Below are positions 2,068-62,529 of a stretch of 64,000 nucleotides of DNA, in pieces. This DNA comes from Xylographa opegraphella (lineage: Eukaryota). A program made the translations under genes and the position numbers. Position 1 is the first letter of the stretch. Each line of letters opens with the position of its first letter. Below the pieces are notes generated by a model. That model saw nothing but the letters and a program-made list of their open reading frames with translations, had not been told where the DNA came from and did not search any database. Location of the stretch: positions 248,001-312,000 of the forward strand of contig JALDZX010000007.1 of NCBI GenBank assembly GCA_022813865.1, given 5' to 3'.

Positions 2068-3939
2068 TCACGCCTCCACTTCCCGAAACTGCACCACCGG
2101 GCCCTCCTTCTTGCACGTAACATGATCGAACAGCTGAAACTCTCCCACCCGCTCCCTTCCCACCCCCTTCCCCTGGCCCCCTTCCCCCATCCTCCGCTCC
2201 TCGCTCGTCACGGCCGCGACATCGAAGCGCTTCAGCACACTCGCCATCGTGAGCATGAGCTCGACCTTCGCGAGGCCTTTGCCGATACAGCTCCTCGGCC
2301 CAATACTGAACGGGGTGTACGCGCTCTGCGCCAGCAGCACGCTCTGGGCCTTGGGCGCGCCGTCTTCGGTAGCGAGCCAGCGCTCCGGCTGGAATGCAAA
2401 TGGCTCCGAGAAGTAACGCGCGTTATGGTGGATGCTGTAAATGCAGGTGCCGACGTCGACGCCGGCGGGGAGGGGGTGGCCGTCGACGACGGCACGATCG
2501 GTGCAGACTTCGCGCCAGAGGGAGCTAGCGGCCGGTGGGGAGAGGCGCAGAGACTCGTCGATACAGGCGGCGAGATAGGTGCACGAGTTGAGCGTGGGGC
2601 CCATGTGTATTGAAGAGGTGGAGGGAAAGGCGGTGCGGACTTCGGCGACCGCGCGGGCATACGCGGCTGGGTTGCGAGTGAGGTAGAAGAAGAGGGAGGC
2701 GATAGCGGTGGAGCTGGTGTCGGAGCCGGCGACAATCAGCGTGGTGCTTTCGGCGCCGATCTCGGCCATGGTGAGGCTCTGTTCCGTTTCGGGGTCCTTG
2801 GCGCTGAGCAGGAAGGAGAAAACGTCGCGGCGCTTGAGGGGGGCGGCGCTCATGCGCGCTTTTAGCAGTCGGCTGACGAAGCTGATGAAGCGGTTGCGGG
2901 CCAGGATTGCTTGGGGCAATAGGTGGCGATCTAGACGGCGGGTGGATAGCTCGGCTGCCTGGACCAGGACACTAGTGCGGACGTTGGATCCTTCGATACA
3001 CTCCGGGACGAAGCGGTTCTCTGGTTTCTCGAGCAGCTCGAAAGCTTCGCCGAAGACCACGTCCGACATGATGTCGAAGGTGAGGTAATTAGCTGGATAT
3101 TGTGTTTTAGTGTCAACTCGATGCATTATCATGAGAATCATCACTCACCCCACCGTGCCATATTCTGCCCGGTTGTCCATCCAGATTTACGCGATGAATT
3201 ATCTGCACTCCATGCAGAAGGTCTCACTTGACTTGCGAGGATGTGACAGAGTTTGTCGACATGGTTCATGATCGTTGGCTCAAAGCCCCGTAAAGAAGCA
3301 TCGGAGAAACCTTGGCTTATGATTCGGCGCTTTCGTCCATGAGCCTTCTTGTCAACGAGTGTCAAGGTGTTGGGGGCTCGGTGGACCATGGCGTTATACA
3401 CGTTCGACTTCTGGAAGTCTTTGCTGAAAGCATAGATAGCTGCGGACAGGCATGATTAGATTTGCTGCGCGATCCGGGAGCCGGGGGTTTGATAAAGCTT
3501 ACTCTTCAGTCCGGTATTCGTGTTCACCAATAGACGATTTGGTGCATAGCGGACATAGTCACCTGATAGAGATTAGCATGTTTTGAGATTGATAAAAAGC
3601 CTGATCAAAGACATACATACCGTATTGTTCATGACACCTCCACATGTCTATGTGAAGGTCCCCTTTCCACGCATGATAACCTCCGTAGCAATTGGTGAGC
3701 TTAGCAGCCAATGGACCAGGGAAGCGTGCTAAGGGGTGGAACCATAGTCGATATACACAAAGTCCAGAGACCTAGATACAGTCAGACAGGGCGATGGTGG
3801 AATTGGAAGGAGAGAAGACGATAGGCAAAGCAGAAGAGCGTAGATTAACAGGATCAATAGAGTAGGAGAACCTCACGTAAATTGTCCCGACCAGCACTGC
3901 AGCTAGCAGGGTATAGAATATGTAGAGACCTAGCGACAT
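2068..3939 (-). CDS. Cytochrome P450 monooxygenase, ~529 aa; exons 3939-3877, 3771-3621, 3562-3503, 3439-3149, 3092-2068
   Basis: N-terminal TM anchor, [14 protein letters not shown] proline hinge, I-helix AGSDTS, ExxR (ESLR), PERW and heme motif [10 protein letters not shown]. Four GT-AG introns keep the frame. Confidence 0.93.
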
Positions 3940-6499: not shown

Positions 6500-9400
6500 A
6501 TGGATCCTCAAGTTGAGCAAGAACTTGCAAGAGTGCTCTTGACCGAGCTTCTGGCGTGAGCGCCTCCGATCGATATCGAGAATGAAGAAGTTTGCAAACT
6601 GACAACGTGTGGAACTCGGCAGATATCAACTTGCTTCTCCGGTGAAGTGGATCGATACACAAGATGTGCTTCTTGCACGAAAGAACATCGAACGTCTCAT
6701 TGAAATTGGCCCATCCGAGACGCTGATTTCCATGGCCAAAAAAACGTTGGCAGCCCAGCACAAGAAACATGATGCACTTCTATCATCGAAGCGTAAGCTC
6801 CTGTACTATAAGAAAGATCAGCGCGAAATTCGATATGAGGTGGATCCCGAGCCGCAGCCAGCCATTCCAGTGGCTCCCACGCCCGCTAAAGTCCCCACGG
6901 CGCCACCAATTCCCGTATCCGCTCCTGAAGCACAAAAGAAAGATTGGTCAGCAAGTGAGGCTGGGCCCGAGCATGGAGCAAAGCATCAGGGAGCAGTGCT
7001 TATCTCCGGTACCACTATGGGAAACCACTCAACCACAGTGCTTGCAGCCTATATGCCAGACGCACCTGTAACAGCAAAGGAGATTGTTGTAACAATAATC
7101 GCGCAGAAGCTCCAAAAGCAGTACAACGGTCTCGCGACGGATAAATCGATCAAACAGCTTGTTGGAGGTTCGTTACCCTCATGATCCGCGTTATCAGTAC
7201 TGCACTGTCGTTACAGTCGATCGAAAACCAGCTAACACTTTCTGCTCGTCTTCACAGGCAGATCAACTCTCGAGAATGAGATAGTGGGAGATCTTGGGGC
7301 TGAATTTGGAACGCTCCCTGACAAGCCCGAAGACATGGACATAGATGCATTGTGTGCAGAGCTCCAATCATCTCCATCTTTCACAGGCCAGTTGAGGAAA
7401 ACCTCGACAGCTTTGACCACAAGATTATTCTCTCTAAAAATGCCAGGCGGCTTCAATGCAGCACAGGCACGTACTTACATGAGCGAAAGATGGGGGTTCG
7501 GCCCCGGCAGGCAAGACTCTGTCATGTTTCGAGCTAGCACCGCACAGCCCGCCGCACGTCTGGGCAGTGAAGGAGAAGCAAGGGCATTTTTTGACCTTGT
7601 GGTGAAGCAGTACGCCCTTGATAACGCACTTACACTGTCCTCCTCCAATCCGTCAGCCGGGGGTATGGCTCAGCCTGTGGTACTGGACACCCGTGATCTA
7701 GCTCAAGTGACAAAGGAACAACAAGCTCGACGAAGAATGAAGGGCGAGTTCTCATACAAGTTGCACGGCGTTGACCCGAACGCTGCCGATAGGGCAGCAT
7801 TAAAGTCCCAGAAGATTATTGATGCCCTTCAGACACGACTTGACGCGCTGCAGGCTGAGCTGGGGGATGTATATGCAAGCGGGGTTTTACCTATGTGGGC
7901 GGCTCCGAAGGTTCGTCGCTATGACTCCAGCTGGAATTGGGCAGTTCAAGATACCTTCGAAACATTCTATGAGATCATAGCTGGAACCTGCGAGCCGACT
8001 GACACTGACGTACTGGATCGTGGAGTCCTGATCGCCAACCGCTCCGATCAAAGATTATTATTGGTAATGCGACATCTGCTAGAGAAATCCTGGGATACAG
8101 ATATTGTTCGGATTGAACTGGCGAAAAGTTTCTTGAAGTATGTGCTCGATCTTTGCAAACCGGGGGTTTCGAAGCCGTTTGTAGCCTACAAAGTAGAGTC
8201 CGGTATGGCTCCTTCAATATCCATTGACCCGAATGGCCAGATTCAGTACATTGAGGTTCCAAGACCGGCCACAGAGTCGGCGCCTACCATCCACCTGAAG
8301 ACCAGTGACGGTTGTGGCTGGACGCGCGCCGACAACCTAACCAGCAAATATTTTTCCTTATTGGACGAAGTGAAAGAGTCGGGACTCTCATTCAAAAACA
8401 AGAATGTTCTTCTTACTGGTGCAGGGCCAAAATCCATTGGTGCCGAAATCCTGCGAGGATTGCTCAATGGCGGCGCTCGTGTACTCGTCACCACTAGCAG
8501 CTATACATCAAAGACAGTCAGATTGTACCAAGAAATGTATATGAAATATGGCAGCGAAGGATCTGAATTGATTGTCGCGCCCTTCAACCAGGGAAGTCAG
8601 CAAGATCTTGAAGCCCTGGTACTGTACATCTATGACCCTGTCAATGGTCTTGGCTGGGATCTCGATCATGTCATTCCATTCGCAGCTGTATCAGAAAATG
8701 GACGGGAGATTGACAACATAGACTCAAAATCAGAACTATCACACCGCATTATGCTCACAAACGTCCTGAGACTGCTAGGCGCAATCAAGAAGCAAAAAGA
8801 ATCACGAGGATTTGATACTAGGCCGACACAAATAATACTACCATTATCGCCCAATCATGGTGTCTTTGGTAACGATGGCCTTTACGCTGAATCCAAAATC
8901 GCACTCGAGACTCTCTTCAACAAATGGCATTCCGAGAGCTGGTCGGAGTATTTATCCGTCTGTGGAGTGGCCATCGGATGGACTCGCGGAACTGGTCTTA
9001 TGGCTGGAAATAATATCCTTGCGGCGGATATCGAAAGAGAAGGCCTCCGCACTTTCTCCCAGCCGGAGATGGCCTTCTATACGCTTCTCCTCATGGGCCG
9101 AACAATCGCCAAGCAGAATGAACTTCAGCCAATATACGCAGACTTCACAGGTGGCATGAGTACAGTACCAGATCTCAAAGCCGTCATGACTGGTATCCAG
9201 CATCGGATCTCTGAGACTACCGCCATATCTAAAGCACTTGCTCTTGAGGAGGGATTCGACATTCTAGCGGCATTCGGCGAGACTGTGTCGAGGCCAGATG
9301 TGGATCCTGTACCCAAAAATGCGAACATTCAATTTGATTTTCCCAGAATGCCATCTTACAAGACCGAAATCTGTCCTTTAGCTACAGATCTGCAGGACAT

Positions 9401-11603
9401 GGTTGACCTAGAGCGAGTTGTGGTCGTTACTGGATTCTCGGAAGTGGGACCGTTTGGAAATGCTCGAACCCGATGGGAGATGGAGGCCAATGGCACTTTC
9501 TCTCTGGAGGGGTGCGTCGAAATGGCCTGGATAATGAGCCTCATCAAGAGCCATGACGGCCCTCTCGACGGTGAGCACTACGTTGGCTGGGTTGACGCAA
9601 AAACCAAGAAAGCCATTCGTGATTGTGACATCAAGTCAAAGTATGAGAGTCAAATCATCGAACATACAGGAATCCGGCTCATCGAGCCAGACTTGGATGA
9701 AGGCTATGATCCACAACGGCAACAATTTCTTCAAGAGATTGTTCTCGAAGAGGACCTACCGCCTTTCCAAGTGCCTCGGGATTTGGCGACCGACTTTCAA
9801 CTGGAGCACAAGGACCTGGTAGACATCTTTGAAGTTGAAGGAGGTGGAGATTATTCGATACGATTGAAGAAGGGTGCGACCTTGTTGGTGCCTAAAGCCT
9901 TGAGAAATGATCGCAATGTGGGCGGCCAAATTCCCACTGGATGGAATGCTCGCACATACGGCATATCGGACGACATCATAGCTCAAGTGGATCGTATAAC
10001 GCTGTTTGCGTTGGTCAGTACCGCGGAGGCCCTCATCGCCTCTGGATTGACAGATCCGTACGAGATGTACAAGTATCTTCACGTGTCAGAGATCGGGAAC
10101 TGCGTTGGCTCTGGAGTCGGCGGCCAGATGTCCAACAAAAGAATGTTCAAGACTCGCTACGTTGACAAACCAGTCCAGAACGACGTGTTACAGGAGACCT
10201 TTATAAACACCACGGCAGCATGGATTAATATGCTTCTACTCTCTTCCTCAGGTCCCATTCGGACTCCGGTTGGTGCTTGCGCTACCTCGCTTGAGTCTTT
10301 GGAAACCGGATTCGAGACTATCATGAGTGGGAAAGCGAAGATGTGTCTAGTGGGTGGCTTCGACGACATGACAGAAAGAGTTGCTTCCGAATTTGCGAAC
10401 ATGAAGGCCACAGCCAATAACGATGAAGAATACGCCAAGGGCCGTGATCCAAAGGATATGTCTCGACCAACCACTACTACACGAAGTGGTTTCATCGAAT
10501 CGCAAGGAGGTGGAGTTCAGGTAATCACTTCTGCCCGTCTTGCCATTGACATGGGTCTTCCTATCCATGGTATTGTAGCATGGGTTGGAACATCTAGCGA
10601 TAAGATTGGACGGTCTGTTCCTGCTCCAGGTAAAGGAATTCTTGTAAATGCTCGCGAAACACCGACTAAGTATCCTTCACCTTTGCTCGACCTCAAGTAC
10701 AGGAAGAGGAGGCTGGAGCTTCGCAAGCGGCAAATCCAAGAGAGCTTAGAGACAGAGTTGGATCTTTCGCGCGAAGAGCTTGGCTGGTTGCAAGATGATG
10801 ATGGATCTGCAGATGCAATAGAACACGTCAAACATCGCATGCTCTACCTACGACAAGAGGCACGTCGCCAGGAGAAAGACGCCATGAACACTTTTGGAAA
10901 CGACTTTTGGCGTGAGATGCCAGACATCTCTCCGATCCGTGGTGCTCTCGCTGTCTGGGGCTTGACTATCGATGACTTAGACGTGGCTTCTTTCCACGGC
11001 ACTTCTACCAAAAAGAATGACACAAACGAGACTGAGGTCGTCCAGAAACAGTTGTCTCACTTAGGTAGAAATGTTGGAAATCCTGTCCTCGGAATCTTCC
11101 AGAAATATCTGACAGGACATGCCAAGGGTGGAGCAGGTGCATGGATGCTCAATGGCTGTCTACAGGTCCTCGATACCGGTATCGTTCCTGGCAACCGCAA
11201 TGCCGACAATATTGATGCAAAGTTGAGAAAGAGTGATCTTATCGTTTATCCAAGCCGCACACTTCAGACTCCCGGTGTGAAGGCCTTCTCAGTCACATCC
11301 TTTGGGTTTGGCCAGAAAGGTGCACAAGCGATCGGGGTACATCCGAAACACCTTTTCGCAACCTTGGGGCCGGCGGAATATCAAGAATATTCGCAGAAGG
11401 TTCGATCGAGACACCGGAAAGCTTTCCGTTTCTTTCACAATGCTTTAGCCACAAACGCCATTTTCGTTGCTAAGGATACTGCACCGTACAGTGACGGTCA
11501 GGAAAGTGCTGTTCTGCTCAATCCACAAGCACGTGTTTTCAGGGTCAATTCATTGGAGGAATACAGCTATGATGATGATGAGTTAGTGAAAGGAATACTA
11601 TGA
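6500..11603 (+). CDS. Fungal type I fatty acid synthase alpha subunit (ACP-KR-KS, no PPT), ~1648 aa; exons 6500-6555, 6623-7167, 7258-11603
   Basis: N-terminus [33 protein letters not shown] is the FAS2-type start. ACP motif GGRSTLENE, KR LLTGAGPKSIG and YAESK, KS PVGACATS, SFHGTST, GHAKG and TSFGFGQKG. Confidence 0.95.
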
Positions 11604-12392: not shown

Positions 12393-13318
12393 TCAGTATA
12401 CGCCTAATGCAGGTTGATTGTCGGGTTCAAAGTCCTCGTGCAGAGTGTCAAGCTCGTTCATGAGCTCCGCTACTCCCTTTCCCCGTACGCGCTCCCGTTC
12501 TGCTACCTCCCACGACCATGTATCAGCCTCCGCTGGCTCCACCATATCTGGAACATGCACGAGTGGTACTGCGCCAGAGGTCTCTATCTTGATGTCCGCC
12601 GGCTTCTCCGGTAGAAGTCCAGCCTCTTGAAGAACGAGCGCTGGTGGAATTGTCATTCGGCCTTGCTTGAAGACGTACTTCGCAACCGATGCTGCACACA
12701 CGATCGGCTTACTGATCGTCTTACTGCCTTTCTTCCAGGGCTGAAGAGTGTATGCTTTTGGCTTGGTACCCTTTTTCACAACGTAGCTCACAAGGTACAG
12801 CCACTTCCGATCCCATGAGAGCACTCGTGTATATATATCCACAGCTTCGTAGGGCTTGATTTCACGACGGAAGTTACAAGCCACACCTCCTAGAATGACC
12901 CCAAAAGAGCCATGTCCTTGACTCTTGAACTTCCTGCCAGCTTCAGTAATTCCCAGCCTCATTAGGCAGGCAATTAAGTGTGCTCGAGCTACATCGAGGT
13001 CACTAAAATATGTGCTGTTGGATTTGTGAAGGTTGTAATCGCATTCTAGAGCAGGCGAGCGGGTGGAAATGATGAGTGGCTGAAAGAGGAGTCCAGCTTT
13101 ATCTTTGGGTGTTCGTGTGACGAAGCCGTGTTGGAAAAAGCCAGAGAAGATACGAACCTAGATAACAATTAGCTCGCCGAGCCCACGTGGTTGAATCTAG
13201 AGACACGTACGTGCCATGCAAGGGGGAGACTTTTCAGATTGAGCAGTAGGAAGGCAATTGCGAGAAGCGCCCCTATTGCCCCGGTTCCGGAGAACAGTTC
13301 AATGGCCGAAGATATCAT
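12393..13318 (-). CDS. Hot-dog fold thioesterase-like protein (4HBT/THEM6-like) with hydrophobic N-terminus, ~290 aa; exons 13318-13211, 13157-12393
   Basis: LLLNLKSLPLAWH|VR across intron 13158-13210, then ECDYNLHKSNSTYFSDLDVAR, FRREIKPYE, TRVLSWDRKWLY and KYVFKQGRMTIPP, typical of fungal thioesterase-like proteins. Confidence 0.8.
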
Positions 13319-18994: not shown

Positions 18995-19817
18995 GTGACC
19001 AATATATGCGAGGTGAACGTCGGAGCGACTACCTACTTGCTATCAGCCCGGACACGAGCGTCTTACACAATGAGGCATACTCGGGCATCGACGGTGCCTG
19101 GACTGACCTGTTGGGGCAAAGCTTGCACCTATCATCGCCGTCTGACGATCATGCTGTCGTAGTATCTACTACTGGCTTAGATCAGAGCCATAACTCTTGG
19201 ACTGTGATCTGGGCAAGTTCTGGACTCGGTCTGTACGGCGCCTTCCGACTTCGAGATGGCTTGTCCCGGAACGATGGAGGTGCTGTCAAGTATCATTCCG
19301 TGCCCAGCATGGCAATGTCGGATGAGCGCCTCGGAAGGGTCAAGGACTCCACGTGTGTACCTGCATTCAATATCCCCACAAGCATGCATGGCACGTATTG
19401 ACAGCTCCTCGGATCGAAACTGCTCTGATGACCAGTAATTTCCCTGTATCCCGACACTCCTGGGACAGCCTTCGCGACTCTTTTCCCTCTGTCTCAGCTA
19501 CCCGACCATTCCTAGGGCCAAGAAGGCTCGAGAAGCTATTGGTTTGAGGTTGCATCTGACGGGAGATCCATGCCGGGTCGTTTCATGGAGAATGGTGCAT
19601 TTGTATATGGTGTGATTTTGTTTGCCACCGAGTAGCTGGGCCCAGCCCGTCCCCAAGCTGAACAAATTTCTTGCAAAAAGGGACCTTGTCCCGACCTCTC
19701 TCTGGAATGTTGAGCGACCAGTACACTTCCTGTACGCATGAATTGTCTCCATAGTGGCATTTTTTGTCTTTCTCTCCCCTCTCAATCCTGCCTTTTGGGA
19801 TTTCTTTAGCTCTCACC

Positions 19818-22800
19818 ATGTCCATCACTGTTGATGGGCAGATGGCATTCCCCACGCATATATGCCTGAAGGCATTGGACATCCTCGGCACTGAGAGTAG
19901 TACTCCTAGCGAGAGTAACAGTCCGTTCGACGACGCCAATGCGAGCGGCAGCAGCAGTCAGAGTGATTGTTCCTCGGAAGAAGCATCGAAAACAGAACTG
20001 AGCTCAATCATCATCGCTCACGGTACAACCGGCATCACATTTACGGTTCCACAACCTCTCAAATATTTTGCTTCGCAACTCAGAGACGAATTCATCACAA
20101 ATCTGCAAAACCCTATTCCTGATAGTGCTTGGGACGGCGATGTGTTCTTCAAGGGAGAGCTTTGCGCTCGGTTTATGGCATTCGTCATTGACCAAATTGA
20201 GCAGCACGTCGACGAAGAGCATATAGTATCGATCTATTCGAGTATTTTGGCAACACTATATGACACCTTTGAAGCTCAGAGCTTGAGGGGTAGGGAAGTA
20301 CACACTGCTGTCTCTTCCTGGCATATAACTTCAGTCAACAAGCAGCTCACCATCCAAGCCTACCTGAAAGCCAAATCCCTACTCGCCACGAAACAATCAT
20401 ACAACAATTCGTATTCCAAATCTGCTCTCTACACAGCCGCTCTTGACGGAAAGGCTAGTGTGTTTGCCATATTTGGAGGCCAGGGAAACGATGATGCTTA
20501 CTTCAATGAGCTGGAAAGCATCTATACGGTGTATCAGATCCTCACAGGAGGCTTGATTACTGCAGCATCTCGTCTTCTAGAACGACTCTCCCGAGACGAC
20601 CGTTTTGCCGAGCAATATCCCCACGGCTTCAATCTTATACAGTGGCTGGAGGATGCATCCTCGCAACCCGAGACCGCTTATCTTATCTCTGCTCCCATTA
20701 GCTTTCCCCTAATTGGACTTCTGCAATTGCTCCATTACAAAACTGTTTGTCATGGATTGGGCTGCAATCCATCAGAGATGCACAAGATGTTTTCAGGCAC
20801 AAGTGGCCATTCGCAAGGCATCGTGGTCTCGACGGTCATCGCTGCTGCAGTTTCTTGGACCTCGTTTGATGACCTCTCGCTGGAAGCACTCGTCATGCTT
20901 CAATCAATGGGCGCCCGAAGTCAGGAGGTTTTCCCTCCGGTAACCTTATCTCCGTTCATCATCGCCGATGCTGAGGAGCATGGTGAAGGATCTCCCACTC
21001 CAATGTTAAGCATTCGCGATATGTCCATCCATAGCGTTCAGGAAGTCGTCGGAGATGTCAACCAACACTTGGATATATCACAGCGCATCGAAGTTTCTCT
21101 CATTAACGCACGAAACAAGATTGTTGTTAGTGGACCACCTCTGTCGCTACATACTTTGAACCTGAGGTTACGCTCACGGAAGGCACCGGCTGGCGTCAAT
21201 CAAGCTCGGATACCCTTCAGCGAACGGAAGCCAAATTTCTCACATCGATTTCTTCCCATCACAGCACCCTTTCACAGCTCGCATCTTTCCGAAGCTGTCG
21301 ACTTGGTCAACAATGATCTGCAGCATCTCTCCATATTTGGATCAAGTCTAAGCATACCGGTCCATGCCACTCACGACGGTGCCGACCTCCGGCTTCGAGG
21401 TCAGGAAAACATTCTTCCCGATATTGTCCGTATGATCCTCGAGCAACCTTTATATTGGGAGCGAGCATCTGAATTTCATGGCGCAACTACCATTATCGAC
21501 TTCGGTCCTGGTGGAGCGGATGGAGTTGGGGGATTAACAAACAAGAACAAAGAGGGGCTTGGGGTTCGGGTAATCCTCGCAAGCATGCTTGAAGGAACCA
21601 ACCCCGACCTAGGCTACAAGTCCGAAATATTCGACCAAAATCTAACCGCGGAATCCTTCGCGAAAGGCACTTGGAGCCATCAATATGCCGCTCGTCTTGT
21701 CAACACTCGTCAGGGACGCACCCTTGTTGACACCAAGATGAGCAGACTTCTTGGTCTGCCACCCGTCATGGTAGCAGCAATGACGCCCACAACAAGCTCA
21801 GCCGCCTTTGTTATCGCTACGATGAACGCTGGCTATCATGTCGAGCTAGCCTCGGGCGGGTTTCATAATGCTCATGCGTTGACGACCGCCATCCATGAAA
21901 TAGCCGCGAACGTCGTGCCCGGACGCGGGATCACAATCAACGTTATCTATGCGAGTCCTCATTCTATGCGATGGCAGATCCCTCTTATCGCAAAGCTCAG
22001 CGCCGAAGGATTACCCATTGACGGCCTCACCGTTGGTGCCGGCGTACCATCAATTGAGATCGCAAGTGGATACATCCATGACCTTGGTCTAAAGCACATC
22101 AGTTTTAAGCCAGGTTCCCTCCTGGCAATTCAGCAAGTCATCAGCGTTGCAAAGGCACACCCGACCTTTCCAATTATTCTACAATGGACGGGAGGTCGTG
22201 GTGGCGGCCATCACTCCTTCGAAGACTTCCATCAGCCATTGCTTGAGATGTACGGCCGGATCAGAAGCTGTAGCAATATTGTACTTGTTGCTGGTAGTGG
22301 TCTAGGGGGCGCTGACGATTCCTATCCATATCTGTCGGGCGAGTGGTCTCTACAATATGGCTACCCTGCAATGCCTTGTGACGGCATACTGTTAGGCAGT
22401 CGAGTGATGGTTGCTAAGGAAGCACGAACCAGCCCAGGTGCAAAACAAGCCATTGTAGATGCCGTCGGCGTTTCAGATTGCCACTGGGAGCAAACTTACA
22501 AGCAATCTACAGGCGGAGTCCTAACAGTCATGTCTGAAATGGGCGAGCCAATCCACAAGCTTGCGACCAGAGGAGTTCAGTTATGGTCAGAGATGGACCG
22601 CACCATCTTCAATCTCAAGAAACCAGATCTCGTGAAACAACTTCAGAAACGCCGCCGTGAAATCATTCATCGACTCAATTCTGACTTTCAGAAGGTTTGG
22701 TTCGGCAAGGACTCCTCAGGGAAAGCTGCCGATATCGAGGATATGACATACGCTGAAGTCATTTTAAGATTTATTGATTTGACCTATGTCAACCATCAAG

Positions 22801-25800
22801 ATCGCTGGATTCATAGCACTTTCAAATCACTGGCAAAGGATCTCATGACTCTTGCAGAGTCGCGATTCACCGGACAACCAGGCTCCTCTTTACGATCGAG
22901 GAACACCGACGATCTCGACGATCCATACCTCGTTGCACAGAATCTATTCGAGTGCTATCCAAGGATGGCCGATCAGCTCATGATCTACCAAGATGCGCGT
23001 AGCTTCATCGCCATGTGCAAAAGGAAAGGACAGAAGCCAGTGCCGTTCATTCCTATTCTTGACGAAAGTTTCGAAACCTGGTTTAAAAAAGATTCACTTT
23101 GGCAATCTGAGGATCTTGAAGCTGTCGTCGACCAAGATGTAGGCCGAGTTTGCATTCTGCAAGGACCTGTCGCAGTCCAATACTCTAAAGCTGTTGATGA
23201 GCCTGTGAAGGATATTCTGGACGGGATCCACAACGGTCACATTGCCATCATTCGTAAGCAATCAGGCGATGACCAAGAGATCGAAAACTTGTTTGTTGAA
23301 TGCTTCGGGCTATACTCTGGCAGCTCTACCCAGGAGACTGCACTGGATGTGAAACTCATATACCAGCATGAACAGAGCACTATCTACGAAGTTTCTCCGT
23401 CTGTCGATGAACCAATGCCCAGCCTCGATCAATGGCTTAGTGCGCTTGGAGGCATTGAGAATGATTGGAGGCGTGCATTCTTCACTACGAAGAACATTGT
23501 ACAAGGCACAAAACTTTGTGAGAATCCCGTCCGAAGATTGTTCCAGCCTACGCGTGGTACCTACGTTCAGGTAGAGGATCTCGAAAATTCGACTGTCACG
23601 ATTTCAATGTTTGAGCACCAAGAAAATGATTATCCCCTCAAAGTCGCCGAGGTCAAGGCCATTGAGCAAGGTCTCGTCTCATTGCACATCCTAGACAATC
23701 GAGCAACTCCTGCAGGGCCTGCCGCACTCGCACTTCGGTTGGAATACTCATATCATCCGGAACATGGTTTTGCGCCAATTCGCGAAGTGACCGAAGGACG
23801 TCACGAGCGTATTAAGGATTTCTATCGTCGAGTCTGGTTTGGCGAAGACGAAAGTATCATGCAATCCTCCGTCCACGACCATTTTGTCAGCGAACCAGTC
23901 TTGGTCTCAAGTGAATCAATTACAAAGTTCGCACGTTGTATCGGAAATTTTGATGATGCCTTTACGAAACGAGGCAGCAAGCAGCTATATGCGCCGATGG
24001 ATTTTGCGATTGTAGTCGCTTGGAAAGCTCTTATGAAGCCCCTCTTTGCTAAAGAGATCGACTGTGATATTCTTAAACTGGTCCATCTATCAAACGGCTT
24101 CAAGATGATAGATGGTGTAAGCCCAATCGAAGAAGGTGACATTCTCAACACCGTTACCCGTGTTGTCACACTCATCAACCAAAATGCCGGTAAACTCGTG
24201 AAAGTTGAAGGCCACATTTTCAAGGATGGCAAACCAGTCATTGAGATTACAAGCGAGTTCCTCATTCGCGGTACATACGATGACAATGAGGATACTTTTG
24301 AGCGTGTCGAGGAATTGCCAGTTGAGATCTATCTGGAATCGCCGAAAGATGTCGCAGTATTGAAAGCCAGGAAATGGGTTCATTTCCATGATGAAAATGT
24401 CGAACTACTTCAACGAAAGCTCGTCTTTCGTCTTCAAACTGTTTCTCGATATGGCGGTAACGGCACTTTCAGCAGTATCAGCTCGACAGGGACGGTCGAA
24501 CTGTCTTCGAATCTCTCTAAGCCGCATCAAATCGCAGTGGTCAATTATAGCGCCAGTAATCCCCACAGGAATCAGGTTCTCGAATATCTCAGACGCCATG
24601 GACATCCCACAGAACGACCAGTACTATTCCAGAACGGAGTTCCACTGCTGAGCGGAGGAGCAGTGACTATAAACATGCCCGCTTGTAACCAGCAATATGC
24701 CAGAGTATCCGGAGACTACAATCCCATCCATGTCTCCACAGCTTTATCGCGATACGCCGAGCTTCCAGGCACTATTACGCATGGCATGCACACGAGTGCA
24801 ATGGTTAGAGGACTTGTGGAGCGATGGGTCTGCGCCTCTGACATAGGATGTTTCAAGAGCTTTAACTGTTCGTTCACTGGTATGGTGCTTCCTAACGATA
24901 AACTGGAGGTAAACCTCCAGCAGATTGGTATGGTCAACGGCAAGAAAATCGTGAGCGTGAAAGCAACCAATTCCACCACTCAGGTTACTGTTCTCCAGGG
25001 AGAAGCTCAGATTGAGCCCCCAAGCACGGCATACGTTTTTACTGGTCAAGGTAGCCAACATCAGGGTATGGGAATGGAACTGTACGCTGAAAGCAAAGCT
25101 GCCCGGCAGGTTTGGGACTTTGCGGACGAGCATTTCTTGCAAAATTATGGTAAGCCAGCCAATTCACATTGGAAAAGTATATCTAACAGTCACAGGCTTC
25201 CGGATCACCGACATTGTGAAGAACAACCCAAAAGAGCTTACCATCCACTTCGGGGGTGCTCGAGGAAGACGTATTCGTGACAACTACATGGCTTTCACTT
25301 ACACTGCCGCTTCAGCTAGCGATGATGCTATGGAGACCAAACCAATATTCCCCACGATCAACGAAGACACCGACTCCTATACGTACACCTCAGCAGGCGG
25401 ATTACTCTCAGCAACTCAGTTTACCCAGCCGGCATTGACCCTCATGGAGAAAGCCATCTTCGAAGACATGCGATCTCGAGGCTTGATCTCGGATGAGAGC
25501 TCCTTCGCCGGTCATTCGTTAGGAGAATACGGTGCTCTATGTTCCATGGGTGGTGTCCTCTCCGTCGAGAGCCTCGTCGCATTGAGCTTCTATCGAGGCT
25601 TGAGCATGCAAATCACAGTGGAACGCGACACGAAAGGGCGCTCGAATTATGCCATGTGTGCGATCGACCCTGGACGCGTAGGAAAAGGTTCGTCAGCCTT
25701 GTCAGTATTTTGTCACCCACTAACTAATACCTCCACAGGCTTCAGTCAAGAAACCCTAGCATTTGTCATTGACACCATCGTCGCTGAGACGGACGGCCTC

Positions 25801-39518: not shown

Positions 39519-40384
39519 TCTATCGTCCGCACTGAAAGTGTATGTCATGTCTGTCGTTATGAACGACGCCGCGAGATCCATCTTCAGCTACAAATTGGGG
39601 CTTGAGATGAAGATGCCGGGGATTGAAGCATGGAAAAGACCGCCCGGCCATGATGACTCAAATGTCCTCGGAACCTAACACATGCGCATATTAGAAAGCG
39701 AGACTGCAAGTGCAATAGTTAAAGTTCTCCACCAGGCAACGCGCTCATGACTTCCAATCCATCGAGGGGACCGCCAATTCTAAATGACCACGTTCAGTTT
39801 ACATACCCACACTTGTCATATTCGCCGTAGGACAGCCTCAAGGATTCAGGATTGGCTTCCGAAAGTAGCGACACTAAGCGAGATGTTCCCGAACTGTGCC
39901 TGATGGAACAGACTGCGGCGAGGCTAAAATCGTACTGGGGAAGACGGTGAGATAGCCAGCGTGGAGGGAAAAAGTAAACTCACTCTGGTGAACTTCATTA
40001 CCGAGGTGAACGGTGGACTTGAACTGCAAGAGAAGCTCCGGGTGGCGATCAGTGGCTCCATTGGGGGCTACGATATCGGGATGGTCGCTCAGCCACAGAA
40101 ATGACGGTTGACATGGAAATACCTGTGGTGAGCATGGTATTGAGCGAGCAGCACACAGCTCGGCAGACTCAGCGGAGAGTATACATTTATCACGCAGCAC
40201 TGCACACTGAACTGAACGGTCAAGTTTTCATCGGCCTAAGTTCTTAGCCCTCCCTCTGCTTAAAAGTCTGCACTCCAGCGGTGCGACTTCTCACATGTAG
40301 TATCTTCGTTTCACCCTCCCTCAACCCGCCACGCTTCACACACCCTCCACCACTCCCTCCACCACACCCTCCACCACACCCTCA

Positions 40385-41843
40385 TCACCATCCTCCTCCT
40401 CCTCTTCCCGCCTCCTCCCCCTCTCCCGTCAAGTCCACCACCACCGCCCGCCTCTCCGGCCCCCTAACCTCAGAGAAGCCCCGAACCCTCACCCCACGCC
40501 CCAATCCCGCTAAGAACCGATCCCGAATCCCGCTCCCGCGCGCCCAGGCCCCGGCCCTGCCCTGAGCAGTCCTCCGAACGTCCTGGCTCGTATCCGTCGC
40601 GAAGAGCTGCACGCAGGCGCGCTCGAGATGAAGAATCTGAATATGGCGCTCCAGAGCAAGCACGCGCGCGTGGTCGGCGGAGCGCTCGTGCTGGACGTGT
40701 GCGAGCTGGAGGGCGAGGGCGGAGAGGTGTTCTGGTGGTGGGAGGGGTGGGTTAGTGGTTTTACAAGGGAGCGGGGGGTGAGTGGGTGCTGACCAACCTT
40801 TCAGGAGCTGTATCTCGTCTTCGAGGGGCTGGCGAGTTGGGTCTGGGGGGAAGAAAGCGGGGACGGTGGGGTCGAGCGTGCTTTGGGGTGGGGCGGGGGA
40901 GGGGTGTGGGGAGGGGGGTGGGGAGTTCAGGAGAATGGTGTTGAGAGGGCTGGGGCTCCTCGGTATGTGCGGCTCAGATGGCTCTTCGTGTGGAGATTCA
41001 ACGGCGGTGAGCGCGACGGCGGCTGCGCCGCTGCCTATTATTTCCATCTTTGGGGGCTGGCCATTGGGCGAATCGAGGGCGTCTTCGTCATCGGTGTCAT
41101 ATAGCCCTGTGCCTGTACCCCTGGTCTTCGATGGTTCCGCTGGTTCGTTCTGCTCGTCGTTATCTAGCGTTTGTTGTGGCTCAGGTGCTGGGAGCAGCGA
41201 TCTAGCCAAACGCTCCGAAATTTCCTTGGTCAACTCTGCATCATCGACATCGGCATCTTCTACTGCCTCGTCCGTGACTGTTGGGTCATCATTGCTCCAC
41301 TTCCCTGTCGGGGGTACAAGGCCAAGCGGACCGGTCGCTTCCATATCTCCTTCCTCGGACGCCGTGTCATATATGGCCGGCCTCCCCTGCGCTTGGCGCG
41401 CGTCTTCCAGCTCAGCCCAGACGTCTACTGGAAAGGGGTTCGTCGGCAGGCCCTCGTCCATGAGTTCCTGCATGATGTCCCGCAGATCGTAGAAGATTGC
41501 ATTTGGGCTGCAGTTCGGGCAAAAAGTCAGTGGGTGCTATATACGGGGCGGAGCTGACTAACACGCGATCCTCAGACAGGAGCTCATCCACCGTGGCGTC
41601 TGCGTTGCGCAGTTCGGGGAAGAAGCGGTACGCGATGTAGAAGGGGATTTCGTCGTGGAGCCTTGCAAAGAAGGCGTCGACGTCGTCGTCGGGTTGCGTC
41701 TCGTTGTCTAGGACTCTTTGCAGAAAGGTGCGGATGCCGCAAAACTCCATGAAAGCTTTCTCTGCTTCTGGTGATAGGCGTTTATGCTTTGGACTGAGTG
41801 AAGCCATGGATGGGGATGCGTTTCTTCTTGAGGTGATGTTCAT
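40385..41843 (-). CDS. Hypothetical protein (acidic/Pro-rich, C-terminal coiled coil); one intron at ~41509-41562
   Basis: ORF 41843-41563 joins ORF 41508-40385 through GTTAGT..CTGAC..CAG (EDRV|PNAIFYDLRDIMQEL). No recognisable domain. Confidence 0.5.
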
Positions 41844-52200: not shown

Positions 52201-55200
52201 CTAATTCCTCCTAATCGCAACATCCTCCTCCTGCGAATCCAATGACCAGACCTGCGTCTGGGAGACATAGCACGTGGGCGCCTTCTTATCCGTCAGCTGG
52301 TCGGTATAGACAGTCCCATACACAAACAGGGTCAACGTCTCGCCTGCCAGAACGGTCAGGTCGGGCGCCTCGAGACCGGTGTCGGGGTCGGTTTTGATAG
52401 GACCCTCGATCTGGAAATTGACTTGGTTGACGTCGTTCTTCGTGTCGCCGGTGTTGCCGGAGGGCACGAAGTGCTGGACGATGTTCAGACTGGCTTGGGA
52501 GTTGGAGCCTGCGCTGGATTGGAGCCGGCAGTAGCCGGCAGAGGTCTTGGTCGAGTCGCCGGTTTGGAAGGCGACGCCGTCGTTGAAGAGAGCGGCGGGA
52601 TTGGGTCCGCTGGTGAGTTCGACCTCGAGGGCGACGATGCCGCAGAAGTCGGCTCCTGTGGTGTTTTTGAAGCTCATTTGAACTTCTTGAACGGTCGACT
52701 GGTTCATAGTATAAGTGGTTGGCATGGAAAAAGTCGTTGGCATGTCCGGCGCTTGTATGCTGGACCCGTCCGCCCAAGGTTTACCCGTATTCTGCATCCA
52801 CTGCTCCACAGGGTTTGCTGGAGGAGGCTTGGTGTACTCCCATATAAAGAGTGCGATCATGACCAATAGCCCGATGCTGATGGAACATTAGCGTTGGAAA
52901 AGATGACTTTCCGAATATTCACTTACACTGCAAGGACGATCGTAACGCTGGCGAAAATAGACGCGGCCGCGAAGTAGGTTGCCACTGCGGAGGCAGCGAA
53001 GGCACGCCCCGATAACCATCCCAACCCAACCGCAAGTGAGGCTATCGCTGCAGTGGCTCCCAGCTATCTTTCAATTAGTGACTCCTCTGCCGATAATCTC
53101 AATGCAAAGTTATATCGATAGAAATACATGTACGTCCACTGACAAGCTATGCGGCTTTGTCGTATTGAACTGAATTCGGGGACAAGATGCCCGAAGGGGC
53201 CAGCGGCTTATCAGCGTGACACATGAATTGAGATGTACTTACTCCAACCATGATCGCGGCTCCAATACCTTCTATCAGCGCCAAGGCGACCTGTATTGAC
53301 TGGAATATGCGGTCGCCAGTCGAGAGCTTGCTCCAATTCTCGACCAGTTGCCACGTCATGAATATGGCCATGCCGATCGCCACGAGATAACCCAAAACAT
53401 CCAACACACCTCGAACGATGGTGAACGCCTTCGTGATGCGTGCGGCTTTGTTGGCTGCATTGAGAGATGCCTCGAGTGCTGCTTCCAATTCGTCCGACGC
53501 CTGACCTTCAACCATCTGCCATTCGGAAGTTATTGGTTTTATGTCATCACCATTCAGTTCCTCGGCCAGATTTGTCTCTGGAATCAGATTTTCGGGCGCG
53601 GAGCCTACCCCAGAGGCGTCCACATCAAGTACTGCCGACTCATTTTGCAGGAACTCTCCATACTCCTGGTCGAAGCGTGCACATAATGACTGGCCCGCAG
53701 GGTCAAGAGCACCACCTTTACGGCGCAAGATGGTTTCAATGGCGTCGGTACCCAGCTTAGCCATGTTGTTGAAGGAGCCAATGACACCCAAAATCAGTTG
53801 GCCTCGCTTTAACGTATCTGCATCGGCCCAAGTGTCACTCAAGAGCCAAATTTGGGCTCCCAAAGCCGCCGCACCAACAAGAAAAAGCAAACTTTTGCCG
53901 AGAATAGCTGTCATGCCGGGTAGATCCGGCGGAAGTGGATCGACGTTGTCCTTTTCCATGGCTTCTTCAGCAACATCTCCAATTCGTTCGGCACCATTCT
54001 TCCAGGCAGCTGCCATCGCCTGACCTTTCGCGATGATCCAGCTGCCGCCAGACTTGATCCAGCCGAATGTTATGGCGAGACCAGCCATCATCAAGCGAAT
54101 ACGGCTCCCGAAGCTTGATATGACCAACAAAGACTGGTCTTTGGGAGACATAGCATCCCATCCCTTTAGCTGTTCGCCCCACGCTTTTATTTCTTTGCCC
54201 ATTTGTATAAGAGATGGACTAGTAATTGACGGATCGTTTGACAAAAGCTTCAGCACAATGTCCTGAAGAGTGTCCTGTAGCCATAGATCCTCAAGTTTGT
54301 TAGCAACGATGTTACTGTTCACGTTTGGATTTCCCCAGTATGGTGAGTGCCACAATGGCCAGTTCTTTCTCGCTAAGACGATATACGTAAGCTGATTGGA
54401 GTTGGTATCGGTGACAGTGATTGTTTGGCTGCTCGTATCATCTGTCCAGATCTTACGCATATATTTCTGCGACGCGGCATTATCCAGTGCGTCCATAACT
54501 AATAACAAGTATTAGTTCTCTCCATTCCTTTCACTGTTATGACAGACTGAACTTACTTGCAGTCAACTTAGTGAGCAATGTTGTGGCCTAAGGCCTTAGT
54601 CAGTCTCAAGATCCCATCTGATATAGTCGGGGCAGGAGAAATTAGCTTACAGATGCGCTTGGACCATTGCCAAATGCCCCGAGGCCGTAAGCATTAGTGT
54701 AATTGTTGAAGAGTTTAGTAGAAATGGTCAAACCACCGTTACCGCCGTCCGAGTTGTAAGCAGTCATAACTGGAGGATAGTTTGTGCGTATTTGGTACCG
54801 AGTCAGATTCCTCTCGAGGCTTTGGTATATGCCGGACTTGGCCAGGCATTCCCCACCCTGGCCGGTCCAGAAATAGCGAATGTTCTTTATCTCCTTCGAT
54901 GTGAATCTATACTGACTTCTGATCTGTGAGTCATCTTGAGCAAGGACCTGGCAAATATATGCCCGCGCGTATGTATTCGCCAACCATTTTGCAGTATCTG
55001 AACCCACAAGGTCAGTCGTGAATTGGGCTGGCAAATTTGTAGGCTTCGCGACTCCAAGAAAGAGCCCTCTTTCGCTATCACTCATGTGCCATGCCATGAC
55101 ATTCTTGAGTAATGTCTGCACGTTACTGTTCACCGTGTTTTGATCATATTCACACTGGACGATCTGGGTCATCAGGTCATTATCATCGTCTAGCCTAGCA

Positions 55201-58148
55201 GAAGCGAGGCGTCCAATAATGTCCGCCTCCGGTACAGTATGTGCGGCGAGTTGAAAATGCCCTGTGGCCCGTGTTGCTTGAGTCGCTTCTGCTTGGGCAT
55301 CGGACAAGAGTATTTCATTTGACATGTTGTGATTTCCGCCTACCCAGTGTGCGGTACCATTGCGACCCGAAGAGTATATATCGAACTCAGTGAATATGCC
55401 CGTGACTGTCGAGCCATCGATTGCAGTTGTCAACTTCAAGCTTTGGAAAAGAATCGGGATTACGAACGATGGATTCATTCCAATCCCAGTGAAATGGAGA
55501 TTAGTAGTGGGAGGCTGAGATTTCTGATCCAGATAATCGGGGTTGTTTTGGAGCCAGGTCGTGTACTCATCTGACGCTTGAAGGATTTTCTGCGCATAAA
55601 GCACATTGAAGGTATGATAAATCTGAGAGTCTACACTGCTCGAGGCGATGTGTTCGTAAAGTTTCTGCATTTGATCCATGGCGTTTTGTGCGTCTGCGTT
55701 TGGCAAGATTTTCTTGCAATTTGACAGCATGGCGTCGCTGACCTGATCGTACAAACCGATCGTTAAAGAGTCGTAGTCAACAACGTCATCTATGATATCC
55801 ATAGTCACAGAACCACAAGGGACGCTTGGTTTCCATGTTGTCGGATCCAGCGAGCCGTCAAAAGACCGCGGATCATACTGCATACTCCAGGACCAAAAGT
55901 TTGGGTCATCGTCGTTGGCCTGTAGAATTTTCTTCATAGCACCACTTTTGACGGCGTGGTGCGTCTTCCCAAGGCCCGTCCTTTTTGCCAGAACGCCAGG
56001 AATCATCTGAAATCTGGTGAAGTTCGCAGCTACTTCCTCGTAGGTTGGAAGTTTCTCCCTACTCCTAATTAAGCGCCCTTCTGCTCTGAATCCCTTCTTC
56101 GTGAATGTACAGTATGCATGTTCCCAAGTAGCGTTATTGATTCGTCGTGACCAGCTTAAACGTTTTCCGTCAAAGGAGGCCTGCTCACATAGCTTTGAAT
56201 CAATCCGTAGCACGCCGCTGTGCAGTTCTACTCTGGCCAGACACTTCATCGAATCTTTGGAGTACAATATGTATGGCATGATGAGCTCCCGAATCGAGAT
56301 TCTTGATATTGGCTGCACTTTCCCTCCATATAATGGTGACGGGGATTTAGCCTCCCTTTCGATAGCTTCCAGCACGGTCTGGCCCCCAAAACGTCTCAAA
56401 TATGGTATCACAGCCCCGCTCTGTGATAACAAACGAAGTCTTTGAGCCTGAGGGATCTCCTGAAGCTGCGCTGCAATGGAGGAGACCGTTATCTCTGGAT
56501 AGTTGAGTGCAACGAGATAGCCGTTTGCGTGGTAGCTTCTCAGTCCCTCACGTAGATGAACACCATAAACATACTTTTCTTGTGAAGTCCTGCCACGAAT
56601 TGATCTGATCTGGACATGTTGGTACTTCTTACCATCGCTGGTATGGAGAAGAATATGACCAACTTGCAGCTTGCCAACATCCAGCCATGGGTTTTCCACT
56701 CGAGCAATTTCTGGAACAATGGCTCTCAATCCGGTGGTTGTGAAGAAGACATGGCCAGGGGTAAAGAATTCACGCTCTCCATTGAAACCAAAGAGATGCT
56801 TTGGGTCTCGATGAATCACGTTTTCGTCAGATACTATGCCATACTGTTGTGGTTGAGCATGCGTCAAGAGCCTTGTTCCTTCCGAGAGTTTTTCTATAGG
56901 TTTTGATCCTTGATCTGTCATTATTTGAGTCCCAGCAGAGAAGCAAGATCCCGCAAATATGCTGTGTTGTTCAACAACATAATTGTTTACTTGAGCGTTA
57001 GCATTGATGAAGCTCTGACCGGCGTTGTTCTTTGCCCATTGAACTAGGTCCCCTCCGTAGATCATGTTGACTGTGTAAGCAAAGGCGGCGGAAGTCGCTC
57101 CATCCGATACTCCATCCGCTTCTGCAGCCATGACAGCGATTTGCCAGAAAGAACCATTTGCCGACAAATCTGTGTTCCATTGGTACCACAGCTGAAAGCT
57201 TGTTGCCTGGTTGTACGCTTCAATCGTGTCATTGCTGAATAAGGTCTGGTTCTTGCCGTCTTCAATAAGTTGGCTTATGCTGGAATCAAGCGCTCCGAGC
57301 TCAGTACCAGCTGATGGGAACAAGGCATTTCCGTTCGCTAGGCCGGCAACGTAAGCGCTTAATTGAGCATCAGCAGTTCCTGTTACCGAGAATATGCCAG
57401 ATAATGCATAGCCGTAGCTTTGGGCAAGAGCGATAAGCTGGTCCTTCGCCATTGTAGAAACGCTCAATTTAGATTGCCACCGTTGTACAATCTCGTATGA
57501 GGATGTCTTTGTGATGTCTTGGGGCATTACAAAGTCAGGCCCAAGCATAAAATATTCGTACGTAAAGAGCACATTCAGAGCACAATGATTATCTGGCTGA
57601 TCTTGAAAAGGGTTGAAAAAGGGTCCTTTCACAAAGGTGGCGAAGGACGTGTCTGTATATAGTTGCCGCAAAGTCGAGAACCCATCAAGTGCAATTTGGG
57701 TGTTGATGTGTTCTGCATACATTGGTGTGATCAGATCCTGTATCTTGCTTTTCGGTACTTGAAAAGCTGGCTCCTATAGCAACAGGAACTATTAGAGAGG
57801 ACCGCATTAGAACGGCGAGCAATTCCCACCACAATACTTGCCGTATCGAAACCCACTCACCTGGTTCACAAGAGCCGCAAACTTCTTCCCATGATCATCG
57901 ATCGTCGGAATGACAGCAGCAGTAGAGGCTGCAGCCAAGGCCTGTACTCGTTGCGAGCAATCAGTGCCGTCCCAGATACAGTTGCTGCGGGAACTGCCTG
58001 CTTTGGAGAAGTACTTCGTGATCGCTGACATGTTACAAGCAGTCAAAGACGCAGCTTTAAGGTCAGCAACAGCGGCGAGTGCTTGGAACCCCGATACCTT
58101 GCCTAGGGTTTCCATAAAGCGCTCAATATCCGGCGTATTGGACGACAT
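52201..58148 (-). CDS. Large Hint-domain protein with hydrophobic helical C-terminal region, ~1836 aa; exons 58148-57861, 57773-54651, 54587-54557, 54498-53243, 53063-52927, 52876-52201
   Basis: Five canonical GT-AG introns join four computed ORFs and two short exons into one open frame (5511 nt). Hint motifs at aa ~373-520 and several long hydrophobic segments in exons 4-6. Confidence 0.8.
56502..56945 (-). other. Hint (hedgehog/intein) autoprocessing domain, ~148 aa, no endonuclease
   Basis: Block A CFSAGTQI..GSKPIEKL, block B FFTPGHVFF (TxxH), and blocks F/G-like VYGVHLREGLRSYHANGYLVALN. Confidence 0.85.
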
Positions 58149-62030: not shown

Positions 62031-62529
62031 GTTGACATTCTCGCTGAAAAAGAGCCAAAGCTTACTTCCGTCGTCGCATATCTCCATTCTCTGAATTACG
62101 TAGCCGAGAAGAACACATCTCGCGCCACCATTAATGACCATAAATTCTCACTGAGTCCCCCTCCGACGTACTCAAGAGAAGCTAACAAAGCACCAAAGCG
62201 AAACACAAATCGCCAAGCGGCGGAAGAAATGAAGCACGCAGCACGGATAAGAAAGGCTGGCGGCATCGACCGCATCGACCACATCGTCCATCCGTAGCTT
62301 GGACGATCCACAGAAAATCTGGTCCAGCGGGTCGATGGCACACTCCGTCGCTTGTACTCTTAGAGAGAAGCGAACAATCCGTCGCTTGTCCTCTAAGAAA
62401 AAACCGATCGGAGTTGTATCGCACGTAACAGGTTCGAAGACCAACATTGACGTATCAAGGAAATATTGAGAATCTGAATCGAATGATCTGCAAGAAAAGA
62501 GGGAAAAGCTCGCGTCACAAGAAACAATG

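Follow-up and report, generated by a model that had tools for sequence, protein, structure and literature searches.

A large, uncharacterised Hint protein family of patchy fungal distribution, represented by a gene of Xylographa opegraphella, with a conserved candidate site for N-terminal self-cleavage

Hint domains are known as inteins, as the processing domains of Hedgehog proteins and as bacterial intein-like (BIL) domains. Here, we describe a large Hint protein encoded in a stretch of 64,000 nucleotides of Xylographa opegraphella (contig JALDZX010000007.1, positions 248,001 to 312,000), hereafter termed the window. The gene occupies positions 52201..58148 on the minus strand and runs from start to stop codon through six exons, specifying a product of 1836 amino acids (aa). 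Its five introns, with lengths of 87, 63, 58, 179, and 50 nt, respectively, are all bounded by GT and AG as verified by a script, and splicing yields a coding sequence of 5511 nt. The spliced translation is identical to the deposited protein P0006 ('hypothetical protein MMC26_001526 [Xylographa opegraphella]', 1836 aa). Moreover, a homology test revealed that up to seven full-length or near-full-length homologues cross all five junctions without gaps, including those of the micro-exon, the product of which matches the conserved motif G-[TS]-x-x-L-T-K-[IL]-x-A-I-M-D-A-L-D. Thus, by sequence comparison the six-exon gene is confirmed as real, as proposed in a preliminary description that had been made from the DNA sequence.

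The layout of the protein was assessed using AlphaFold models together with Kyte-Doolittle hydropathy, which was employed to call hydrophobic segments. The model of the exon-2 protein, with 41 aligned sequences as input, reached a mean predicted local distance difference test score (pLDDT) of 83.8, and the model of aa 1138-1836 one of 59.7, being confident only over the last 180 residues. Models and hydropathy together indicate the order that had been read from the sequence before, comprising an N-terminal domain, the Hint domain, a beta-rich and helical middle, hydrophobic helices, and a beta-rich end. The coordinates of all features are given in Table 1.

Table 1. Exons, stop-free frames and predicted domains of the Hint protein gene; positions refer to the window.
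Feature	Residues (aa)	Position	Strand	Remarks
Exon 1		58148-57861	minus	splice sites read in sequence
Exon 2		57773-54651	minus	splice sites read in sequence
Exon 3 (31-nt micro-exon)		54587-54557	minus	splice sites read in sequence
Exon 4		54498-53243	minus	splice sites read in sequence
Exon 5		53063-52927	minus	splice sites read in sequence
Exon 6		52876-52201	minus	splice sites read in sequence
Stop-free frame, 127 aa		57807-58190	minus	
Stop-free frame, 1043 aa		54642-57773	minus	
Stop-free frame, 454 aa		53147-54511	minus	
Stop-free frame, 228 aa		52201-52887	minus	
N-terminal, mostly helical domain	1-372	56946..58148	minus	exon 1 and start of exon 2; intron 1 (57860-57774) inside
Hint (BIL-like) domain, 148 aa	373-520	56502..56945	minus	Cys373 = 56945-56943; Asn520 = 56504-56502
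Helical linker	521-586	56304..56501	minus	starts with conserved NYPEIT motif; helices at model residues 430-475
Eight-stranded up-and-down beta-barrel	587-690	55992..56303	minus	conserved W637, R639, E647, H648
Middle module, beta-rich part and helical part	722-911 and 919-1124	54690..55898	minus	pLDDT mostly 85-95
Hydrophobic Gly/Ala-rich helix cluster, predicted membrane anchor	1505-1628	52828..53428	minus	introns 4 and 5 inside
C-terminal beta-sandwich, Ig/FN3 type	1657-1836	52204..52743	minus	confident part of model

In the model, the helices of the N-terminal domain run to about aa 345 with a pLDDT of about 90. The N-terminal helix is conserved in the family, and the domain ends with Gly-Ser directly in front of Cys373. 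Four helices are located between the Hint domain and the barrel, the fold class of which is avidin, TbpB, and lipocalin-like according to a structure search of the model. The middle module contains the conserved motifs H992-M993, Y1063-x-W1065-x-G1067, and C1072; it was detected in 68 of 168 fetched proteins, and a Pfam search with it gave no match. The long helical region that follows harbors a hydrophobic segment at aa 1342-1362 and a dense cluster of segments at aa 1505-1530, 1545-1563, 1564-1583, 1588-1606, and 1607-1628, where the model places three long helices with low pLDDT. In a Volvox homologue, Pfam identifies the counterpart of the C-terminal beta-sandwich as fn3.

The nature of aa 373-520 as a Hint domain is settled by the predicted structure. 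In the AlphaFold model the domain extends over aa 372-522, so that the borders Cys373 and Asn520 given in the preliminary description are correct within one residue, and it shows the beta-fold that characterises the Hint superfamily. The top Foldseek match is the BIL2 domain of Tetrahymena BUBL1 (6y75, E 1.2e-7, target TM 0.79), followed in rank by the BIL domain of C. thermocellum, mini-inteins, and Hedgehog. Within the domain, Thr434-Pro-Gly-His437 represents block B, and Asn520 is followed by Tyr521-Pro-Glu-Ile-Thr. At the level of primary structure the relation is distant: a phmmer search of PDB sequences with the exon-2 protein returned nothing under E 0.49, and the family Hint profile found in PDB the first Hint block of 2lwy only (first 30 residues, E 0.0028), the rest being noise.

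To follow the catalytic positions through the family, 211 Hint rows from the fetched proteins were aligned to a family profile, and residues were counted over the rows filled at each position. Position 373 (Cys1) is Cys in 164 of 184 rows; in block B, position 434 is Thr or Ser in 191 of 201 rows and position 437 is His in 178 of 201. Asn occupies position 520 in 177 of 185 rows, and the linker begins with Tyr at position 521 (+1; 166 of 184 rows, with Thr in only 3), Pro at 522 (179 of 184), and Thr at 525 (167 of 180). The query itself retains Cys373, Thr434, His437, Asn520, and Tyr521, and when bacterial rows are left out, Cys, Thr/Ser, His, Asn, and Tyr are all kept in 123 of 160 complete eukaryotic rows. 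Moreover, the Hint domain is the best-conserved segment of the protein, the share of the commonest residue being 0.51-0.62 over aa 401-550 versus 0.15-0.46 elsewhere (49 rows). Of the 211 rows, 79 carry Gly and 65 carry Ser directly in front of Cys1.

The rows that lack Cys1, 19 in number, shed light on the two residues at the C-terminal border. Tyr521 is missing in 12 of these 19 rows versus 4 of 141 Cys-bearing rows, a pattern among related rows and not a test on independent samples. Since Tyr521 is lost together with Cys1, it behaves as a part of the active site. Asn520, on the other hand, is kept in all 19 rows, and its surroundings deviate from the canonical end: the domain of the query terminates in ...YLV-A-L-N520 and the family in V-[A/H]-[L/V/M]-N-Y-P-E-I-T, with Ala in 66 and His in 58 rows at position 518 and L, V, or M at position 519. 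The closest bacterial Hint domains end in ...LVHN, placing the Asn of the family one position later, although the end points of the structural alignment are ambiguous by one residue. Asn520 may therefore be catalytic or structural, and its role in C-terminal cleavage is uncertain. Of the two cleavage residues named in the preliminary description, the Cys373 site is supported by its conservation, whereas the assignment of Asn520 is in doubt.

The identity of the +1 residue bears on the expected reaction. As excerpted from PMC4031507, BIL domains, which lack a nucleophile at +1, mainly cleave, and a Magnetospirillum BIL domain with Tyr at this position spliced only after the Tyr had been changed to Cys. 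Tyr at +1 prevents the formation of the branched intermediate on which splicing depends. The conserved Cys, Thr, His, and Asn together with the non-nucleophilic Tyr would therefore be expected to support cleavage and not splicing, and the Hint domain probably cuts off the first 372 residues via a thioester at Cys373. In this respect, the conserved columns point in the direction of the self-cleavage that had been proposed earlier.

Among the closest known systems are the type A BIL domains of C. thermocellum (PDB 2lwy) and of Tetrahymena BUBL1 (BIL2; PDB 6tmm, 6y75), with which the family shares the absence of Cys, Ser, or Thr at +1. It differs from BIL domains by an end that aligns as V-[A/H]-[L/V/M]-N in place of H-N and by its host, which is a conserved eukaryotic protein of ~1800 aa, whereas BIL domains reside in variable bacterial surface proteins or in ubiquitin-like repeats. 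By sequence, the closest non-eukaryotic relatives of the domain are tandem Hint domains of Bacteroidota, for example those of P0074 (Mucilaginibacter angelicae, 4119 aa, five Hint domains); they match the exon-2 protein at E 1.9e-45, and in comparison with the family profile each domain yields about 1e-35. Two motifs, F-[FV]-T-x-x-H-x-F-x-T as well as Y-[HY]-A-[ND]-G, are common to them and the family, but the bacterial domains show the canonical LVHN end, are repeated head to tail, and are accompanied by Laminin_G, Laminin_B, FBA, or fn3 domains; no other module of the fungal family was found in the tandem-Hint proteins of Bacteroidota. Arrays of 2-5 Hint domains were seen in Bacteroidota or metagenome proteins, namely P0074 (aa 2040-2771), P0104 (1084-1755), P0166 (1922-2213), and P0143 (about 559-1027), in which 3-4 linking residues, for example KGGS, separate each LVHN from the Cys that follows. 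In contrast to Vint proteins, the query contains no vWA domain and has no Pfam Vint match. An excerpt of Bürglin 2008 (PMC2362128) lists fungal Vint proteins and one Hog protein of Glomeromycota, and the layout of the present family does not appear in it.

A HMMER scan with the exon-2 protein against clusters at 50% identity returned 771 clusters at E<=1e-3, 307 at E<=1e-10, a part of which are bacterial Hint-only proteins, and 94 at E<=1e-30. Most matches cover exon-2 residues 274-576, indicating that the Hint domain and the region following it form the conserved core. Named members belong to Lecanoromycetes, Eurotiomycetes, Sordariomycetes, Dothideomycetes, Orbiliomycetes, Geoglossomycetes, and Xylonomycetes, a patchy distribution across Pezizomycotina; beyond these, members occur in two Agaricales (Pluteus and Galerina) and, on megabase contigs, in Volvox. 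The Volvox homologues P0084, P0199, and P0201 (Volvox reticuliferus and V. africanus) share the overall layout, carry a C-terminal fn3 domain, and are about 33% identical across the Hint domain and the region behind it. The two V. africanus genes lie four locus tags apart and are probably near-tandem. In the databases, members are named hypothetical, uncharacterised, or 'Hint domain-containing'. X. opegraphella itself possesses a second member, P0174 (MMC26_004470, 1800 aa), with 44% identity over aa 365-700. For aa 1138-1836, a word-based homologue search gave only the query and the Exophiala protein P0007, and phmmer among the fetched proteins then gave 20. A scan of the genomes of 185,579 prokaryote species for the middle module yielded 30 pattern matches and no confirmed relative, with a method that is pattern-limited.

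Judged by homology clustering, the architecture of the family is uniform and not modular. Among single-Hint members, 70 reach a length of 1400 aa or more; in these, the region in front of the domain comprises 68-500 aa and that behind it 796-1547 aa. One homology cluster holds 63 of 69 N-terminal regions, another all 70 pre-terminal regions (the 450 aa before the last 230 aa), and a third the last 230 aa of 62 of the 70 members. The late hydrophobic cluster, at roughly 200 aa from the C-terminus, is shared by 69 of the 70. The Hint domain is present in 197 of 208 fetched proteins, the remaining 11 being four exon pieces of the query, six fragments that begin after the domain, and one Hint-less relative, P0151. 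The tree, a quick maximum-likelihood analysis of 43 named rows (LG+G4) with support from the Shimodaira-Hasegawa-like approximate likelihood ratio test only, mixes fungal classes, with at least nine changes for Sordariomycetes and at least seven for Dothideomycetes on starred branches, which are to be read with caution. The query pairs with Exophiala (support 99) and not with other Xylographa sequences; P0174 sits in another clade, next to Trichoderma sequences, and both Agaricales are nested among ascomycetes. Ancient paralogues that were extensively lost, horizontal transfer, or a combination of the two would be compatible with this conflict between tree and taxonomy. Member names and tree thus agree with the earlier view of an uncharacterised, patchy family. 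The patchy fungal matches foreseen at that time were likewise found, but not an exchange of N- or C-terminal domains between homologues.

Taken together, these data are best explained by an autoprocessed protein with a cytosolic N-terminus and a C-terminal membrane anchor, in which a BIL-type Hint domain cuts off or hands on the N-terminal domain of 372 aa; we assign this explanation a probability of roughly 55%. After folding, Cys373 would attack the carbonyl of Ser372, and Thr434 and His437 would aid the resulting N-to-S acyl shift. The thioester would then be resolved by water or another nucleophile, thereby freeing the N-terminal domain from the remaining ~1460 residues, and the Tyr after the Hint domain would exclude splicing as the next step. 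As noted before, no signal peptide is evident, here by a test of hydropathy only: over the first 45 aa, the value for 10-residue segments does not exceed 1.57, and none of the 70 long members has a 19-residue hydrophobic stretch within its first 60 aa. The bulk of the protein is therefore predicted to face the cytosol. The C-terminal helix cluster would tether it to a membrane, on the opposite side of which the last domain would lie. Gene model, Hint fold, residue conservation, uniform architecture, and distribution are shown by the data, while the occurrence of cleavage, the membrane topology, and any biological role are what we infer from these features.

Several observations weigh against this explanation. 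Cleavage of the query protein is a prediction from its sequence. About 19 of 160 Hint domains of the family lack Cys1 and mostly also the His, yet the proteins have full length (~1600-1750 aa). Such members with a dead Hint domain occur in Aspergillus, Penicillium, Xylaria, Xylona, and Fusarium, including Fusarium decemcellulare (P0062, P0069, P0071, P0080, P0087, P0093, P0206, and P0207, among others), with two of them in Aspergillus ibericus. In addition, the N-terminal domain, post-Hint region, and middle module are present in P0151 of Nemania bipapillata (1233 aa), whereas a Hint domain could not be detected in its residues 192-382 even after every HMMER filter had been disabled; P0151 represents either a paralogue without the domain or an error of the gene model. 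The Pfam family Hint_2 matches over profile positions 2-33 only, scoring 24.6-25.5 bits versus a cut-off of 28.4. For aa 1-372, 701-1137, and 1138-1650 neither structural nor profile matches were obtained, in fold searches that barely tested these regions, as one domain filled the match lists. Finally, the pLDDT of the helical and hydrophobic region amounts to 35-65, and both anchor and topology derive from hydropathy. Considering the dead-Hint members and the one Hint-less relative, cleavage is therefore not required in every member, and the scaffold would therefore also have a role independent of cleavage.

The profile and structure searches reproduced part of what had been expected from the preliminary description. 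A Hint-type profile match was found, albeit partial and below the cut-off, and there was none to PT-HINT, Vint, or Hedgehog-type Pfam families. Likewise, Foldseek connected the Hint domain with BIL domains, inteins, and Hedgehog, but left the N-terminal domain, the middle, and the helical region, which the fold searches barely probed, without a match. Apart from Hint_2, no Pfam domain was detected in the query and 16 homologues, and no toxin or pore-forming one in 19 further family members. At E<=1 over 20 family rows, Hint_2 appeared in 11, and other families in at most three rows each, as noise from hydrophobic helices. Moreover, NCBIfam gave no meaningful match to the four exon proteins, and the ESM Atlas no usable match to aa 1-365 and aa 521-1140.

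According to the preliminary description, the protein might be a precursor that cleaves itself and gives rise, for instance, to an antagonism toxin or to a cell-death or immune protein. In such a scheme, a C-terminal module able to insert into membranes and form pores would be set free by the Hint domain. The size of the protein, its lack of a known role, and its domain of a self-cleaving type are in line with this proposal, as are the long hydrophobic Gly/Ala-rich helices and the patchy, paralogue-rich family with a gene tree in conflict with taxonomy. As with PT-HINT proteins (PF07591), the Hint domain resides within a very large multi-domain protein. However, PF07591 matches neither the query nor 16 homologues, whereas it does match the tandem Hint domains of Bacteroidota, and the searches described above revealed no toxin or pore-forming Pfam family. 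In contrast to polymorphic toxins, the family lacks a variable C-terminal toxin cassette and a secretion-related domain; its N- and C-terminal modules are homologous across members and not swapped, and no signal peptide is evident. Diphtheria-toxin rows in the structure search are generic matches of an Ig-like sandwich, tied with pilins, cohesins, and adaptor subunits. No small adjoining gene could be recognised as an immunity partner: at the 3′ end, a convergent aminotransferase gene follows at a distance of ~375 bp, and no frame within 2.5 kb upstream of the gene has a Pfam match. The middle module, moreover, has no confirmed relative among the prokaryote pattern matches of the pattern-limited scan. 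The toxin-like modular architecture is therefore not supported, and we consider a toxin unlikely.

Somewhat less likely still is a transfer reaction as in Hedgehog proteins, in which a small molecule held by the barrel, and not water, would resolve the Cys373 thioester, so that the N-terminal domain would gain a lipid, a sterol, or another adduct. The succession of cargo, [G/S]-Cys-Phe, Hint domain, and accessory region mirrors Hedgehog and Hog proteins, and the Hint domain with the region behind it forms the conserved core of the family. The position of the Hedgehog adduct region is taken by the conserved linker and barrel, which might recognise an adduct. The barrel displays the conserved polar residues R639, E647, and H648, and avidin, TbpB, and lipocalin-like folds often bind small ligands. 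Its ligand, however, is hypothetical, and the Hedgehog-type Pfam family PF01079 does not match (E<=1 for the exon proteins; E<=0.01 for the full-length query and 16 homologues). Further differences from Hedgehog/Hog (PDB 1at0) are the absence of a recognisable sterol-recognition region and the ~1300 residues behind the Hint domain. Moreover, no signal peptide is evident in the family, whereas Hog proteins are secreted, as stated in an excerpt of PMC2362128. Taken further, the protein might be an intracellular, membrane-tethered fungal counterpart of Hedgehog, whose Hint domain and barrel would move the N-terminal domain onto a specific small molecule or protein amine, thereby freeing a tagged signalling or effector domain from a sensor with an outward Ig/FN3-like end; we regard this idea as speculative and its probability as just as low.

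Similarly doubtful is the possibility that the Hint domain of the query protein has been domesticated as a structural module and has lost its cleavage activity. The dead-Hint members and the Hint-less relative keep the remaining architecture, as this explanation would predict. The query, however, retains all five active-site residues, these columns are jointly kept in most eukaryotic rows, and no other segment of the protein is as well conserved.

It is very improbable that the protein is an annotation artefact in which at least two separate genes were fused by a wrong exon model, given that alignments with homologues run straight over every junction and that the 70 homologues of at least 1400 aa, which span many species and annotation pipelines as well as apparently intron-free frames on short metagenome contigs, keep one module order. 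The least probable alternative, a genuine mobile intein that splices out of its host, is contradicted by the Tyr at +1, by the absence of a homing endonuclease insert from a domain of 148 aa, and by the presence of the Hint domain in nearly all fetched proteins, with no population of intein-free alleles, and the family moreover differs from the fungal nuclear inteins of PRP8 and VMA1 in lacking a conserved housekeeping host, as had been recognised earlier.

The neighbours of the gene in the window are a class-V aminotransferase, Sir2, a TPR protein, EF3, FAS alpha, FAS beta, a P450, a thioesterase, and a GH5 cellulase. An accessory position next to relics of transposable elements, as proposed before, is not substantiated by these ordinary neighbours. 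The flanks display no dinucleotide bias of the type left by repeat-induced point mutation and no transposon relics, a Pfam search of 19 flanking frames gave no match at E<=0.1, and flanking repeats are absent except for one 34-nt tandem pair at a distance of 4 kb. This pair, located at 62340-62407, consists of two copies that are 82% alike and lies inside frames upstream of the exon of the GH5 cellulase. The FAS alpha and beta frames are encoded on the same strand about 8 kb apart (7236-11603 and 19755-25280, both plus), with cytochrome P450 and thioesterase-like frames nearby (2068-3144 and 12393-13157, both minus); this FAS pair could be the primary FAS or that of a secondary-metabolite cluster. 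The GC content peaks at 0.67 (positions 1-1000) and 0.62 (40001-41000) as compared to a window mean of 0.51, and positions 1-1000 show a strong negative GC skew of -0.25.

A literature search by topic and by 12 locus tags, with supplements outside the search, yielded no description of the family. In an excerpt of their review on eukaryotic inteins, Green et al. 2018 (PMC5784728) state that most eukaryotic proteins with a Hint domain have no known function. The proteins described here form one large, coherent Hint family with a fixed architecture and an apparently active N-terminal cleavage site, for which the natural dead-Hint paralogues could serve as controls. Since members are present in the tractable genera Podospora, Aspergillus, Trichoderma, and Fusarium, both chemistry and biology are directly testable. 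Should the reaction be limited to self-cleavage, the protein would be a further example of an autoprocessed membrane protein; transfer of the thioester to a specific acceptor would represent a new route of protein modification in fungi.

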